NCBI RefSeq assembly: GCF_056746865.1
Contig: NZ_JBWKMP010000006.1
DNA from: a plasmid
Length of the DNA: 63,119 bases
Reading direction: 5' to 3' (one strand)
Notes under the pieces: model-generated
The model's input: only the letters and a program-made list of their open reading frames with translations
Databases searched by the model: none
What the model was told of the DNA's origin: nothing
Shown here: one piece after another, positions 14,488-60,901 of the stretch
Layout of the letters: each line of letters opens with the position of its first letter
Position numbering within the stretch: position 1 is the stretch's first letter
Position numbers and translations under genes: made by a program

Positions 14488-15696
14488 TCAGAATTCGTTG
14501 TCTGTAGCAGGTGTGCGGGGCAGGATGTCGTCGGTGAGGGACCAGTTGGTCAGGATGCGGCGTTTCCGGTCGCGATCTGGTTGTGGTTCATCCCAGATAA
14601 GACCGAGACTGAGCATATCCCGCCGTAAGCCTTCCACCGCTTCATCAACACAGGGTTCAGGGCAGGGAAGACCAAAACGCATGGCTTCGGCCTCTGCACG
14701 TGCAACGGCCACCACGCCAGCGCCTTCAATAAATCCTTTCGTGGTATTGGCGCGGTGTAATGCATAAAACAGCGTCCTGTCCACGCCTTTCAGCCAAATC
14801 CAGTTGGGTGGCGTAAGCCGCAGGTCATGTGCATACAGCCAGACCAGCCCACTGCGGACGTAGCGATGTTGTTTCAGCCATTGCTGTGCTCCGTTGCTTT
14901 TAATCACTCTCTGGAAAGCTGATTTGGCCAGTGAATAAACAGGGGTACAGAATTTCCCACTGTCCCGTTTGCTTTTAATTCTGCATGAGAGGTTCAGTGT
15001 ATCCATGAGCTTTAATGCTGCCTTACGATCATCCAGGAAATACTGAAGACCAAATATGGCAAAGAGCGCTTTTTCATGTGGTGCCATGTCTTTCCAGGAC
15101 GTTAAAGGTTTACCCAACTGGGCCATGAAACATCGTCTTGCAGCTGCAACATCGAGCTGCATATTGGTGATGAGAGTATGCTGCTCGACAAATGCTTCCG
15201 GGGTGAGAGCAACCCGCCGTTCAGGTCGTTTGCCACCATGAAAGAGTTTTTCCGGATCACCATCTGCCAGTACAGGGGCGATAGCCAGGGACAACAAAGC
15301 AAAGATGTGTGGCAGGCGGGTAATATCTACTGGTCTGCGGGTGAAACGACTTTGTCCCGGATGTTGATACCACTCCCACAAACACCAGAGTGTCACAGGT
15401 AAGAGGTACATCCACAGAATACCTATGGTCTGCTCCATGACGTTAACCCACTGGCTATAGCTTATGTTGGCGGCGTTGTTACCGGTCATGGCAAGCAGGT
15501 TGTATCGTGGTGCTGCATAGTTATGAAATGGTCCCCAGTCAACCAGTCCCCATAAGGTATGAAGAATCAGGCAGCTGGCGTAAACCACTTCCGGCAAGAA
15601 TAACCATATAACGAATAGCAGCAGGATAAGAAGGACACCAACAGCGCCCCATATCTGCATAGGATCTTCTGCGACAGGCTGTCGATTGTAAGACAT
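14488..15696 (-). CDS. trbA: TrbA, integral membrane transfer protein
   Basis: 402-aa ORF with a hydrophobic N-terminus, upstream of trbB in the same operon. Confidence 0.75.
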   Translation of the reverse strand: MSYNRQPVAEDPMQIWGAVGVLLILLLFVIWLFLPEVVYASCLILHTLWGLVDWGPFHNYAAPRYNLLAMTGNNAANISYSQWVNVMEQTIGILWMYLLPVTLWCLWEWYQHPGQSRFTRRPVDITRLPHIFALLSLAIAPVLADGDPEKLFHGGKRPERRVALTPEAFVEQHTLITNMQLDVAAARRCFMAQLGKPLTSWKDMAPHEKALFAIFGLQYFLDDRKAALKLMDTLNLSCRIKSKRDSGKFCTPVYSLAKSAFQRVIKSNGAQQWLKQHRYVRSGLVWLYAHDLRLTPPNWIWLKGVDRTLFYALHRANTTKGFIEGAGVVAVARAEAEAMRFGLPCPEPCVDEAVEGLRRDMLSLGLIWDEPQPDRDRKRRILTNWSLTDDILPRTPATDNEF

Positions 15697-15869
15697 GACA
15701 AAGTCTCCATTTCTGGAATTTAAATCAAACGGAAAGGTTAAAAATTTATTTGCAGGCGATAAGAGCTAACCAGAGGAATTAGCCGTGTGATAAAAGGATT
15801 GTTGCAGATACGAAAGTCGTTAGAATAGCTGCGGGCGCTTGAGGCTGTATGCCGAAAGCGTTTTGTGGA

Positions 15870-15935
15870 CGGTATACAGCAGAAAGCCCCAGGCGATTTT
15901 TTTATCAATCAACCAAGGGCTCTACTGTAATGCCT
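15870..15935 (-). ncRNA. pndB: candidate PndB (Sok-like) antisense RNA
   Basis: - strand promoter-like TTGCCT-N17-TACTATAAT (15977-15943) directed across the pndC translation-initiation region; boundaries are approximate. Confidence 0.3.
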
Positions 15936-16133
15936 AGACAACATTATAGTAGCCCGATAACCGCCGTAAGGCAATGGAGGGGCTATGATGCCACAGCGAA
16001 CGTTTTTAATGATGTTAATCGTCGTCTGTGTGACGATTCTGTGTTTTGTCTGGATGGTGAGGGATTCGCTTTGCGGACTCCGGCTCCAGCAGGGAAACAC
16101 AGTGCTTGTGGCAACGTTAGCCTACGAAGTTAA
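15930..16133 (+). CDS. pndC: PndC (Mok-like overlapping reading frame)
   Basis: ATG 15930 frame MPRQHYSSPITAVRQWRGYDATANVF... overlaps pndA in a different frame, as in hok/mok. Confidence 0.5.
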   Translation: MPRQHYSSPITAVRQWRGYDATANVFNDVNRRLCDDSVFCLDGEGFALRTPAPAGKHSACGNVSLRS

Positions 16134-16140
16134 ACGTTAA
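15985..16140 (+). CDS. pndA: PndA, Hok-family type I toxin
   Basis: 51-aa peptide MMPQRTFLMMLIVVCVTILCFVWMVRDSLCGLRLQQGNTVLVATLAYEVKR (Hok/Gef signature); below the 60-aa cutoff of the ORF track. Confidence 0.85.
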   Translation: MMPQRTFLMMLIVVCVTILCFVWMVRDSLCGLRLQQGNTVLVATLAYEVKR

Positions 16141-16463: not shown

Positions 16464-16614
16464 CGGATTTTCTCTCTGTATTTATGGGTAGTTATCGAAC
16501 TGAATGTGCCAGTTTTTTCAGGAGACGGCAAAGTTGAGATGATTGGTTCTGATTCAGAGCATGAGTTTCCCGGTGTGACGGGCATGTCGGGCGGATTTTG
16601 AGAAACAACAGATG

Positions 16615-16646
16615 TAAAAAAACCGACTGGTGAGGTCGGTTTTTTT
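16615..16646. terminator. bidirectional rho-independent terminator
   Basis: A7-ACCGAC-TGGTGAG-GTCGGT-T6. Confidence 0.55.
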
Positions 16647-16770
16647 ACTGTTCCGTTACAGAGTGGGTGGCTCTGACCGGAGGTCTATAACTGACGCTAA
16701 AAATGATAATTTGTTCTAACTGATTAATGTTCATGCCATAAGTTTACGGGAAAGGCTGACCACCTGATAT

Positions 16771-16801
16771 TTGCAAAATACGCAAGTCCATCCTGTATAA
16801 T
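16771..16801 (+). promoter_or_regulatory. sigma70-like promoter for the DinQ-like locus
   Basis: TTGCAA (16771-16776), 19-bp spacer, TATAAT (16796-16801) preceded by TG. Confidence 0.45.
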
Positions 16802-17028
16802 CCGCAGGTCAACCAAGCTCTGTAATGGCTAGACACATTCTGTAGCCCGCTGATATCCATCGGGACTATGGACAGCTGTGCTATTCAAAGTCCTGGCCGG
16901 ACAAACAGGTGGTGCTGCGTTTGGTGCTCTGGCCGGAGGAAGTCTCTTTTCAACTAACACTGAAAGTGCCGTTGTGACAGGCAATGTAAGAGTAAACAAC
17001 GGTGATTTCTCCAGTGATGGAGAAGCGG

Positions 17029-17142
17029 ATGATTTCCCTGTTAATCATCGTTCTCAGGGCGGTAGTTGCCGTTGCAAACGCGCTGATTGCTGTTCTGGAA
17101 CTGATCCGGGAACTCGTCTTGCTGATAAGCCTGGAAACGTAA
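17029..17142 (+). CDS. small hydrophobic peptide, candidate type I toxin (DinQ-like)
   Basis: 37-aa ORF MISLLIIVLRAVVAVANALIAVLELIRELVLLISLET with GGAG 6 nt upstream; resembles DinQ as recalled (ALIALLELIRFLL); promoter upstream and hairpin downstream. Confidence 0.45.
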   Translation: MISLLIIVLRAVVAVANALIAVLELIRELVLLISLET

Positions 17143-17143
17143 C

Positions 17144-17176
17144 TAAGGGCAGGGATTTACCGCTAACCTGCCCTTT
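17144..17176 (+). terminator. terminator-like hairpin after the DinQ-like ORF
   Basis: AAGGGCAGG...CCTGCCCTT stem followed by TTTAAC. Confidence 0.4.
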
Positions 17177-17191
17177 AACAAAAAAGAGATC

Positions 17192-17368
17192 TCACGTTAA
17201 AAATTTGTACCCTTCTTTAACTTCCAGTGCCTGCTCCTTTGACTCAAACATCAGTCTTGTTTTCCCGGGAACACCCCATGAAATGTATTCAACATCTATC
17301 CACCATTTTCCATATTCTTCATATGGCCCGGATATTACTTTTTTGACAAAGGCGTCTACCAGATTCAT
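17192..17368 (-). CDS. hypothetical small protein
   Basis: 58-aa ORF MNLVDAFVKKVISGPYEEYGKWWIDVEYISWGVPGKTRLMFESKEQALEVKEGYKFLT from ATG 17368; AGGA-type Shine-Dalgarno. Confidence 0.35.
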   Translation of the reverse strand: MNLVDAFVKKVISGPYEEYGKWWIDVEYISWGVPGKTRLMFESKEQALEVKEGYKFLT

Positions 17369-17759
17369 TGTTTTTTCCTTTTTGTGTTGAAAATAATTAA
17401 TGCCAGAGCACAGCGAAAATAATGAATGCGCTGGCTGTGATAATTGCGATTTTCTCCCATATGATATTTTTCTCATGGGGGTTTCTACGGAGATTATTTC
17501 TTCGCATTGAGATACCGGTATTCATGTTTTATCTTGGACTTTTGTTTTGTTGTCTGTCTGGCAGGCTGTTCTGCGCCCGTTTGTGACAAGGTTAGCTTAT
17601 GGGGTTAAATGGTCACGGACATCATGCGGACGGTTCCCTGTCACATGCCATCTGGTTTTTTCATTCAAATTGAGAGATATTGCTAAGTTGAGTCGCTTGC
17701 GATAGTGGACTCCTGTTTGTAAGTGAGTGCCATTGTTTATTTCATGAAGAGGATTGATT

Positions 17760-18040: not shown

Positions 18041-18703
18041 TTAAAATACTTCGGCTACAGGCATGCCTGCAATCTGCTCCCACTCCTTACGCTTCTCCTG
18101 AATCAGGCGAGGAAAGTCGACAGGGTAATCATATCCTCGACTTGCCATAGCGTGCATGGTGTTTGATGCGGTTTCTGGATGAGTACACCATGATGGAATA
18201 GGAACCATTGGCAGGTTGATGTATTTCGTATGAATTTCCAGTGTTTTGTCGTCTGTTACAGTACGAGTGAAATTATGAATGTCAAAACCGATAACATCCA
18301 TAATGTTGCCTGGATAGATACGGACATACAACATTGTGCCATTTTTAAGGTCAATACCGAAATAAGCTCCCTGAGTTAAAGATAATCCTTCATACCCCTT
18401 CTCTGGAGAGTAGAAGCCTGACTCTTTTATTGTTTGTACAACTTTTCTTATCTTTTCTCTCCTTGTTTTTGCACGTGAATACATCCATATACCTGGCGCA
18501 AGTAATAAGAACCAACTACCAAAAGTGACAACATAATCTTCAATGTTGTCACCATAATAACGAGAACTAAATAACATCAGTGTAGATGTCAGTGCGCAAA
18601 ATAAAAAGAAAGGTATTCCTAAAAAGAAGTAAGCCTTCCTTAATACATAATATAACAACCACCAAGTTGGAAATCTGTCAGTTGTCTCTTTTTTATCTTT
18701 CAT
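18041..18703 (-). CDS. excA: ExcA entry (surface) exclusion protein
   Basis: 220-aa membrane protein immediately downstream of traY; size and position match R64 ExcA as recalled. Confidence 0.8.
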
Positions 18704-18831
18704 ATAATGCCTCCCCTCGTACTATCTATTATTTTAATGCCGATGGGGAGGTTGTGCAATAGTGTTTTATTATATTATCCTTTTATTCCGTCCTTGTCGT
18801 CACTTCCTATTATCTTTAACACGATCTGTTT

Positions 18832-21008
18832 TCATTCCGAAGGAGTATGTCGGATATTGCGACTTCCTCCAATAAATATTTCTTTAACAGAATTTGCCAT
18901 GCTGCCAAGAGTGTTGGCTCCATCACGTCCCCCAAGGAAATTAATAACATGATCAGGTAGGTAGGCCTGAAGGGCAAATATGGCAGCTACAGAGGTTGTA
19001 CAAATTCTGGCGTATATCAGCAAGAAACCAGCAAGACTGAAAATACCGGTCAGCGAATTGAACTGTACGTTAACCAGGGCAGCGCCAAATAATGCATTCA
19101 GTATTGTGCCTACGGCGATGATGGCGACAGAAGCAAAGAAAAAACCAAAGACCATGAGGGCGGCCTTATCATACTATCAATTAAGTATATATAACCGTAG
19201 GCTGCCCGACTTCCTCTGTCTTCTGATGTTCCGAGATGTGTTGCAGCCCACAGAGGCCCGGCGGTACATCCTATTAATACGCTGACTATCCAGTTCCCGA
19301 TGCCTGTCATCCAGAAAATAAACGGAATAAATGGCAGGTAAATTGATAAGGAAAATCCAGCACAGAACATCAGGAACAGCAAGAAATAAACAGGTGGTGC
19401 AAGTGCTTCAAACAGCGCGGTAAGCATCGAAGCGGCACCTGTTAGTGAGTTAAAGAATTTTACAAGAATTGAGTTTTGCCACTGGCAACGACAACTCTGA
19501 CCGTTGTATATAGTCCAGATTCCTTCTGCACTTACCATTGTTATATCTCCGATATTTTTCATTTTTATCAGATGGATTAATTTGATCGCTGGTTGTTCCT
19601 GTGCCACTTGTTTCTGTTGCAATCCTGTTAGTGAGACTAACAAGGGGGCCCATAATTTCAGACAAGGCAGATTTAGGATCTTGTGCATTTGCCATTCGTT
19701 GTTCAGTTGGATGATAGTACTGTGCCCAGCGGTGGCGTATAGGAGGAATTCTGCAGTTGCGTCCTGGTAGGCACTCATGACCGCACTGAATAAGTCAGTA
19801 TCACCAACTTCTCCCAGTGATGACATTGAAGTTACAGCTGGAGCTCTGTCAGCCAGCTCTGCCAGACGCTGGTTAGCAGTGGCAAAGGTCTGATACCATG
19901 CGCCAAGCGTTACCCACCCGTAGGTTGTGAGATAAGATTTAAGAGCCTCTTTTCTGGATTGCTCTCCGTTATCAGTGGGTAGCGATTTTTGCACAGCACG
20001 TTCATATTCGTCGGCTGCTTTCTGAATCCGTGTCTCGATATCCGGCAATGTTCCGTTGCCAGAATTTCTTTTTTCCAGAAATGTTGTCACAAACTCACTG
20101 GCAGCGTTGTCCATGTCGCTAATCATATTATCCATGGCTGCACGTTGTGCTGAGATAACACCGCTGTATTCGTTTTTACTGAAGGGATTAAAGAATTTTC
20201 CAATCGTCGATTGATCTGTTGTTCCGTTTCCTTCTACTGACAGGCTGGCTGAACCACAGATACCGCTGCCATTGGATACCGTGACAGTGTAATTACCACT
20301 GGCGGTTTTAGCTGATTCTGTCATCAGTGAAGTCGAGGATTTGGCCGTCTGATTAAAATCATTTAGTCCTGCGTTAACCGCATACTTACACAGTTCCATT
20401 TCAAAAATGCCACGCGCTGCTGTTCGTGTGGATGCCTGAACTGGCTGTACAGTCATTGAATAACCATTTGCGATATTATCAGCGGCAAGTTGCACCATCA
20501 CATTGGCGGACCCAACCCCCATTATCGATGCGCCCCATAACATAATGAGCTGAGCGATACTCCAGCCATTTCCGGTTGGAACGATCATCAGAAAACCTGC
20601 AACGACACTCAGTGTGCCGACGATATCGCGTCCGGTGCTGAATACCTGTCCCTGATGCCCCGAACGCACAACATGACGGATACCAATGAACATAAACCAG
20701 ACAACGGCAAGTACGGCGATGATACTGTTGAACGCCCCGAACATGCTTCCGATCAGAGTGGGGGCGCTGGTTGACAGTGGATTGGTGACTACATCACCGA
20801 ATATCGTGACCAGCGCCTGGCGAGACAGATCGTCAGGATTGGTTGCGGCAGACACAATATCCTGATAGGTCACTGAAGCCATTGCCGGCAGTGAGGATAT
20901 AGCAAGGCCTGCACAGAGTGCGCGAAGTAAAATTTTCACAGTAACTCCGGAATAGAATTGCGTATGGGCAAAGGCCACACAGGATTTAATTAAGGGGGAT
21001 GGCGACAT
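18832..21008 (-). pseudogene. traY: TraY (DotA-like polytopic membrane protein), frameshifted near the A6 run at 19139-19144
   Basis: 632-aa ORF (19110-21008) and 107-aa ORF (18832-19155) overlap in different frames; adding one T/A in the homopolymer joins them (...IRPPSWSLVFFFASVAIIAVG...). Confidence 0.8.
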
Positions 21009-59735: not shown

Positions 59736-60074
59736 AGCAAAGGTCTCCGATGACAACTAAAAACGCTATCACTGAGTTCCTACGCTCATTGGTGATAGCC
59801 CAGACGGGGGTAGGAATACCGGCGTCATCGGAAACCGGCCAGGCTAATGCCTGCCCCGCCTGAGCTACCATAGATGACGACAAGAAATACAAGTTCCTGT
59901 CTTTATGGTATGGCAAAAAACGACGCCAAATGAAGAAATTAACTTCTGCGCCGACGATGACTACGCGGGTTCCTACGCCCGATCACAGTTTTGCCTGTGA
60001 CCAGTAAAGGGTACTTAGTATAACGCACCGAGTCAACTAACAGCTTAAAAAACATACAAAAAAGCGTCAAAACT

Positions 60075-60721: not shown

Positions 60722-60797
60722 CCATAAAAGGAAAACCCCCACTATCTTTCTTACGAACTTGGCGGAACGACGAAAGATAGTGGGGGCCTCACAGAAT
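60722..60797 (-). ncRNA. inc: Inc antisense RNA (copy-number control of repZ)
   Basis: Perfect 15-bp stem (60736-60750 / 60772-60786) with loop containing TTGGCG (60759-60764); - strand promoter TTGAAT-N17-TATACT (60832-60806) and T-rich tail after the stem. Confidence 0.55.
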
Positions 60798-60811
60798 ACG
60801 GGTAAAGTATA

Positions 60812-60901
60812 ATGAAACCGTACCAGAGATTCAACCCTGTGCAGTGTATAAATACACGGCACAATCGCTCCGCCATAAGCGACAGCTTGTGGCAGGTCTG
60901 A
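60812..60901 (+). CDS. repY: RepY leader peptide
   Basis: 29-codon ORF MKPYQRFNPVQCINTRHNRSAISDSLWQV ending at TGA 60899-60901, overlapping the repZ start. Confidence 0.65.
   Translation: MKPYQRFNPVQCINTRHNRSAISDSLWQV

Follow-up and report, generated by a model that had tools for sequence, protein, structure and literature searches.

The dinQ-like genes dqlA and dqlB were defined by Kristiansen et al. in 2016 on enterobacterial chromosomes and plasmids (PMC5066626), and dqlB-agrB is by now a known and experimentally validated family of type I toxin-antitoxin modules that is routinely annotated (dqlB in RefSeq/PGAP). In 2025, DqlB toxicity, rescue by agrB and plasmid stabilisation were described for pOXA-48 and pOXA-484, killing upon plasmid loss was described for pOXA-48 dqlB, and dqlB was reported on 67.4% of IncI1 plasmids (PMC12365149, PMC12317039). 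The family is thus already established as a widespread addiction module of resistance plasmids, with reported frequencies of 67% in IncI1 and >95% in IncL/M.

The regulatory logic of the family has been worked out on dinQ of E. coli K-12. Stem S1 (element 1:2) locks the +1 transcript, whose SD is shut in hairpin 3:4; when the first 44 nt are removed, helix 2:3 forms and the SD opens. AgrB pairs with dinQ G88-A119, which shuts the SD again and leads to cleavage by RNase III (PMC5066626). AgrA is reported not to repress dinQ, and the first ~40 nt are the most variable part of the dql leaders (PMC5066626). By extension, each member of the family would encode a small inner-membrane peptide. In the long 5′ UTR of its mRNA, hairpin 3:4 would hide the SD and helix 2:3 would open it after processing has removed the 5′ lock (1:2). 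An AgrB-like sRNA would then pair over ~33 nt around element 2, leading to re-closure of the SD hairpin and RNase III cleavage. Where the module is carried by a plasmid, the antitoxin would cease to be supplied once the plasmid is lost, and the cell would be killed.

Here we compare these systems with a locus on an IncI1 plasmid, contained in a 63,119-nt stretch of plasmid DNA that was analysed as a whole and is called the window below (RefSeq assembly GCF_056746865.1, contig NZ_JBWKMP010000006.1). An initial annotation, made from the letters of the sequence, had proposed a second, complete type I toxin transcription unit downstream of pnd, and the features that it listed are all in place. Sequence comparison and structure modelling suggest that this unit is a rearranged, probably attenuated or partly disabled allele of the dqlB-agrB (DinQ-like) module, a reading that we hold with fair rather than firm confidence. 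The agrA/agrB-dinQ locus of E. coli K-12 aligns collinearly with the whole of it, from the terminator of the sRNA through that of the toxin, as do dqlB of R64 and four further plasmid loci that PGAP annotates as dqlB. R64 dqlB also lies in the identical genomic slot, flanked by pnd, a small hypothetical gene and excA. For quantitative comparisons we used a set of six dinQ/dql loci, the window locus and five others (R64, K1, K2/Z, pESI and K-12).

The toxin coding sequence (17029..17142, + strand) encodes a hydrophobic peptide of 37 aa (MISLLIIVLRAVVAVANALIAVLELIRELVLLISLET) and is preceded by a ribosome-binding site, GGAG at 17019-17022, six nt 5′ of the ATG, as had been noticed from the start. 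The peptide had also been judged DinQ-like and not Hok-like, and profile searches bear this out: NCBIfam NF041473 ("DinQ-like type I toxin DqlB") matches residues 1-30 with 57.9 bits (cutoff 35; the profile has 31 positions), and the peptide has no match to any NCBIfam Hok model, so that no Hok/Gef-family toxin (~50 aa) was found at the locus. Named DqlB proteins are 83-97% identical to it. The NCBIfam DinQ model itself reaches 15.1 bits (cutoff 30), the motif ...ALIA.LELIR... is shared with K-12 dinQ, and a Pfam search of the peptide returned no match. Related plasmids with a conserved copy of the ORF number well over a thousand. It starts with ATG, unlike K-12 dinQ, which starts with GUG. 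Two longer frames, an ORF of 170 aa (16878-17390) and a GTG-start ORF of 46 aa, were rejected as mechanical, since the match to the family profile begins with the ATG at 17029.

Compared with the 31-aa toxins of the other plasmid modules (R64/IncI1, pOXA-48 IncL and pOXA-484 IncX3), with which it shares the toxin family (NCBIfam DqlB), the window peptide has a frameshifted tail. Close to the 3′ end of dqlB, an indel of 1 nt turns the canonical ...ELVD (31 aa) into ...ELVLLISLET (37 aa), and the C-terminal 7 residues consequently deviate from DqlB. Only one other contig with such an extended tail was found, from GCA_053109875.1 (segment 2231-2344): an otherwise R64-type dqlB that ends in …ELVRLISLET, again 37 aa, through an independent 1-nt insertion near the 3′ end. 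The near-identical tail indicates that the frameshift recurs; the extended peptide may still be toxic. Downstream lies the predicted terminator hairpin of the dqlB mRNA (stem-loop 17145..17176, + strand; stem 17145-17175), homologous to SL9 of dinQ by alignment with the K-12 dinQ and R64 terminators. It escaped a scan for T-runs because its tail is only TTT, as in dinQ.

What the initial annotation missed is the antitoxin gene of the family. On the opposite strand, 114 bp upstream, lies an AgrB-like antisense sRNA gene (16614..16694, − strand), matched by Rfam RF02891 AgrB over 16694-16614 with 50.2 bits (gathering score 40) and ending in a strong terminator hairpin at 16614-16648 (terminator scan). 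A divergent AgrB-like sRNA gene is likewise found upstream of the other plasmid dqlB genes, whereas K-12 has two such genes on its chromosome. A direct repeat with a 14-nt core (16670-16683 and 16926-16939) is shared by the sRNA gene and the toxin 5′ UTR, which makes the sRNA antisense to the 5′ UTR. Its promoter is predicted at 16703..16733 (− strand), with -10 TATCAT (16708-16703) and -35 TGAACA (16733-16728) separated by 19 nt, coordinates that we read by homology with the K-12 agrB promoter and from the alignments. To judge by its hexamers and spacing, this promoter looks weaker than those of R64 (TTGCTA-17-TATTAT) and RCS85_pI (TTGCAT-18-TATCAT).

Between leader and ORF, the canonical dinQ/dql 5′ UTR (16852..17028, + strand) is conserved from ~16884 on in alignments with K-12 dinQ and five plasmid dqlB genes. 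SL2, the target with element 2, SL4, the 3:4 hairpin and the dinQ-type terminator are all recognisable over ~16884-17176, so that the four-element architecture of K-12 dinQ (PMC5066626) and the antisense target, SD hairpin and terminator of the plasmid modules have their homologues here. The antisense target (GGAGGAAGTCTCTTTTCAACTAAC, 16926-16958, + strand) is of the R64/K2Z type, and the SD-sequestering hairpin (elements 3:4, TCTCCA/TGGAGA) lies at 17008-17023, + strand. By analogy with the family, the toxin mRNA would start at ~16808 and be ~369 nt long, its translation would be gated by the 3:4 SD hairpin at 17008-17023 against helix 2:3, and the sRNA would act on 16926-16958.

Several parts of this switch are altered in the window allele. 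All energies given here and below are thermodynamic predictions. The lock duplex between leader and target is predicted at -15.0 kcal/mol in the window, no better than shuffles (z=+1.2), against -24 to -33 kcal/mol at the five other loci (z -2.0 to -4.7); the family's 5′ lock (element 1:2), the S1 lock of K-12 dinQ, is thus absent from the predicted duplexes of the window. Helix 2:3 is also weaker than at the comparison loci (-11.4 vs -15 to -19 kcal/mol) because of a 1-nt deletion in element 3, which the other plasmid modules lack. The SD hairpin is predicted at -9.9 kcal/mol, against -7.0 kcal/mol in R64. RNAfold gives the SD a probability of being unpaired of 0.011 in the +1 form and of 0.062 after processing, values that do not make the window a clear outlier, since the reference loci scatter widely (pESI 0.008, K1 0.07). 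In this allele the SD would be held mostly closed.

Does the sRNA of the window still recognise its target? The sRNA is a chimera. Its body is that of the R64 sRNA up to ~16678 and diverges beyond, within a 5′ specificity region (~16679-16694) that is 7 nt shorter than the Rfam model; this region (GGAGG|TCTATAACTGAC) resembles the IncI-gamma/K1 type minus 7 nt and mismatches the R64-type target. Near-perfect complementarity of ~30-35 nt between sRNA and 5′ UTR, typical of the family, is accordingly reduced to the 14-nt core at 16926-16939. The predicted duplex of window sRNA and window target has -37.7 kcal/mol (cofold ddG -11.8), compared with -52 to -68 kcal/mol (ddG -24 to -39) for cognate plasmid pairs and AgrB x dinQ, and with -44 to -48 kcal/mol (ddG -23.7) for K-12 AgrA x dinQ. 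An R64-type sRNA, on the other hand, would pair with the window target at -61 to -65 kcal/mol (ddG -39.2). In these models the window pairing is in the non-cognate range. Neither a second AgrB-like gene (one match to Rfam AgrB in the 63 kb) nor a further copy of the target repeat was found in the window; the rest of the plasmid, outside the 63-kb window, could carry a cognate sRNA gene of the R64 type (pattern GTTAGTTGAAAAGAGAYTTCCTCC). Elsewhere in the window, Rfam also matched the C4 antisense RNA (59788-59875, − strand, 77.5 bits) and the repZ regulatory pseudoknot (60728-60876, + strand, 194.5 bits), the latter as an IncI1 replicon would lead one to expect.

The dqlB promoter is a hybrid as well. 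It extends over 16771..16808 (+ strand), with -35 TTGCAA at 16771-16776 and -10 TATAAT at 16796-16801. The initial annotation had called it near-consensus, which holds for the hexamers and fails for their spacing of 19 nt, the reason why a consensus scan (16-18 nt) did not call it. The -35 region aligns with the promoter of a hok-like fragment found in ColIb-P9-type plasmids (see below), and the -10 TATAAT together with CCGCAGG is identical to R64 dqlB, so that the promoter would join a hok-like -35 region to a dql-type -10 and +1. The +1 is predicted at G16808 by homology with K-12 dinQ +1, itself deduced from published nucleotide numbering (PMC5066626). SOS control, as in dinQ, was considered and rejected: no LexA box overlaps -10/+1, where a pattern search finds CTG-N9-CAG (16794-16808) instead of the CTG-N10-CAG of dinQ. 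The nearest CTG-N10-CAG, and the only one nearby, lies inside the 5′ UTR (16893-16908) and is the homologue of a weak LexA candidate reported for plasmid pTF2 (PMC12211044). The whole window has 41 copies of the pattern; dinucleotide shuffles have 17.3 +/- 3.8 and at most 29. None of the 41 is at the dqlB promoter.

Taken together, the loss of the lock and of the cognate match, the weak opening helix and the 19-nt spacers in both promoters suggest that the module is most likely attenuated or partly disabled. The frameshifted end of the toxin counts among the signs of attenuation as well. No viable plasmid can carry a membrane toxin that has escaped repression.

Alternatively, the module could be a fully functional addiction system, in which the chimeric sRNA represses dqlB through the GC-rich core GCUCUGGCCGGAGG overlapping element 2 and the altered leader and tail are neutral. 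We consider this unlikely, though it is the alternative that we take most seriously. The sRNA gene is intact, with its terminator, and scores above the Rfam gathering threshold, and the plasmid evidently tolerates the locus. The predicted sRNA-target duplex contains a contiguous run of 17 bp that covers part of element 2, where AgrA x dinQ has a run of 9 bp; in the models, this run could be sufficient to block helix 2:3. The paired core covers the GGAGG that the helix needs. Nevertheless, both duplex energy and ddG are weaker than those of AgrA x dinQ, the pair reported not to repress (PMC5066626), the sRNA promoter looks weaker than those of its relatives, and the allele was found nowhere else in the collections searched, which gives no sign of selective maintenance. 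These points favour the attenuated allele.

The most unusual part of the attenuated allele is its leader. In place of the canonical GUUAG... lock of the other plasmid modules, the first ~43 nt (16809..16851, + strand) are a decayed sokT hairpin of the hok/pnd type. The initial annotation had described this segment as pnd-like, and shuffle-tested alignments confirm that it contains sequence derived from pnd/hok: 16809-16850 and 15909-15956, in the window's own pnd, are identical in 41/48 columns (z=13.9, 0/500 shuffles), with a local score of 46 that no dinucleotide shuffle equalled (15.8 +/- 2.2, maximum 30, 0/2000). In terms of known systems, the segment is homologous to the sokT hairpin and pndC start of R483 pnd and R1 hok/sok. 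The best match, however, is the hok-like fragment of RCS85_pI/ColIb-P9 (45/52 columns, z=18.7, 0/500 shuffles). In RCS85_pI, pEW827 and ColIb-P9, a truncated hok-like locus with a full 5′ leader and no hok ORF lies at the same position (Rfam sok 67.5 bits), preceded by the window's sRNA variant, its intergenic region and the hok-like promoter. The fragment is present at >=80% coverage in 319 PLSDB records. By these alignments, the leader descends from a paralogue of pnd that has decayed and is often found in this interval on IncI1 plasmids, and the sokT relic would stem from a truncated hok-like locus between tandem agrB-like genes, as in ColIb-P9-type plasmids.

The leader also matches the R64 lock element at 26/28 positions (0/2000 shuffles). 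Since it matches both, it looks intermediate between the hok hairpin and the R64 lock, and its sequence may record how, in the course of evolution, a hok-type leader gave rise to the leaders of dql. As a general statement, that canonical dql leaders are hok-derived was rejected: local alignments of the R64, K1, K2/Z, pESI and K-12 leaders to hok-type leaders are not significant, and global alignments are marginal at best, with 73-87/2000 shuffles reaching the R64 and pESI scores.

Little of a working hok-type leader is left in the window. The 5′ ~75 nt, with the tac/ucb region, are absent. The ATG at 16825 opens only MARHIL before a stop (16825-16845), as had been pointed out initially, and this mini-ORF is a relic of the pndC-like frame: no mok/pndC frame overlaps the toxin, and the upstream SD-like AAGGG is lost. 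An own antisense promoter, degenerate, had been suggested; the degeneracy is real, the homologue of the pndB -10 reading TACAGA, and no -35 accompanies it, so that the leader has no Sok/PndB-type antisense promoter in cis that could be read from the sequence. Finally, the Rfam sok model found nothing besides pnd itself between 14000 and 19000 at E<=1.

Could the leader nevertheless serve as a target for PndB, as the initial annotation had supposed? The neighbouring pnd locus (15833..16140, + strand) is a Hok-family system (Rfam sok 131.2 bits), with pndA matches below the curated NCBIfam cutoffs (HokA 67.1, cutoff 89; Hok family 45.0, cutoff 73). PndB is predicted to run from ~15941 down to ~15884 (− strand), from a promoter TTGCCT-17-TACTAT that we presume to be its own by analogy with the R1 sok promoter. 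Acting in trans on the sokT-like 16818-16836, PndB would alter processing, stability or translation of the dqlB mRNA; in a variant, cleavage in the leader could even switch the mRNA on, much as dinQ is activated by processing at +44. If so, one antitoxin would gate two toxins, a rare cross-family wiring between type I systems. The 5′ tail of predicted PndB fits the leader at 14/15 positions (UGUCUAG.CAUUACAG), with the CUAG loop motif kept, and the duplex is predicted at -36.5 kcal/mol (cofold ddG -17.1), against -27.9 +/- 4.1 for shuffles.

This is only ~2 sd better than random, however; one shuffle reached -40.8 and the cognate pair -110.8 kcal/mol. The hairpin that would present the target is predicted to be unstable (-5.8 vs -16.5 kcal/mol), and the leader lacks a sok match in Rfam at E<=1. 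With the pndC-type SD lost and the ORF reduced to 6 codons, PndB would have no translational coupling to block, and the toxin SD lies ~190 nt downstream of the leader, governed by dql elements. Antisense RNAs of the hok family are generally specific to their own targets. In addition, the regulator of the family is the divergent AgrB-like sRNA, and the combination of hok leader and dqlB was seen on no other plasmid in the collections searched. Control of dqlB by PndB therefore appears improbable on these models, and equally improbable is that the locus is a natural regulatory hybrid, in which a Hok-type target replaces the self-locking 5′ element and PndB governs a second, unrelated toxin mRNA.

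The attenuated allele sits in a patch of about 550 bp (~16659-17250) that is 47-97% identical to R64 per 100-column alignment block, within a backbone that is 99-100% identical; the left edge of the patch falls inside the sRNA gene. We searched for the allele elsewhere. It was not found in PLSDB with an 83-nt leader query in distant mode, nor by megablast in PLSDB and 5,426 complete E. coli genomes, where the best hit is R64-type and ~91% identical. Exact junction patterns were absent from one-genome-per-species contigs and from JGI metagenome contigs (two scans each), and exact look-up of the 37-aa and 46-aa peptides in a protein collection gave none.

Such rarity might mean that the locus is a dead relic or in part a sequencing artefact, its indels being decay or errors in a locus no longer expressed. 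The allele is indeed a singleton: 1396 PLSDB records gave a match, and each dql copy found in them differs from it by at least 8%. Several 1-nt indels are located at functionally critical places (element 3, the dqlB 3′ end and the 5′ region of the sRNA), and the spacer is 19 nt long in either promoter. Yet the ORF, SD, SD hairpin, SL2 and SL4 homologues, target and both terminators are all intact, the frameshifted tail arose independently in another assembly, and the divergence consists mostly of substitutions and a structured mosaic, not of random errors. We thus regard this explanation as very improbable, slightly more so than control by PndB. A newly designed pnd-controlled toxin is disfavoured. 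The pnd-type leader, which had been taken as a conserved feature, belongs to a single mosaic allele (1/6 dinQ/dql loci) and gives no sign of conserved regulatory design.

As an attenuated mosaic allele, the locus points to the pnd-to-excA interval of IncI1 plasmids as a recombination hotspot that would shuffle agrB-like genes, dql toxins and hok-like fragments. The products would include mismatched toxin/antitoxin pairs and, in ColIb-P9-type plasmids, antitoxin arrays without a toxin. Such exchange is relevant to the diversification of antisense specificity and to the anti-addiction that competing plasmids might exert on one another. The IncI1/I-gamma plasmids ColIb-P9 (NC_002122.1; segment 1600-2400), RCS85_pI (2000-2830) and pEW827 have no dqlB. 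They carry two AgrB-like genes above the Rfam gathering score and a third that is diverged and has another specificity region, and truncated dql promoters lie alongside the hok/pnd-like 5′ fragment. Such an array of antitoxins without a toxin could act as an anti-addiction system.

Divergence from R64 was also seen at other places in the window. A second patch at 18458-18852, in the excA surface-exclusion region, is 73-90% identical to R64 with flanks at 99-100%. Two clusters of substitutions were found closer by, one at 15860-15959 in the pnd leader/PndB region (96% identity to R64) and one at 15260-15359 in trbA (94%), in otherwise identical surroundings.
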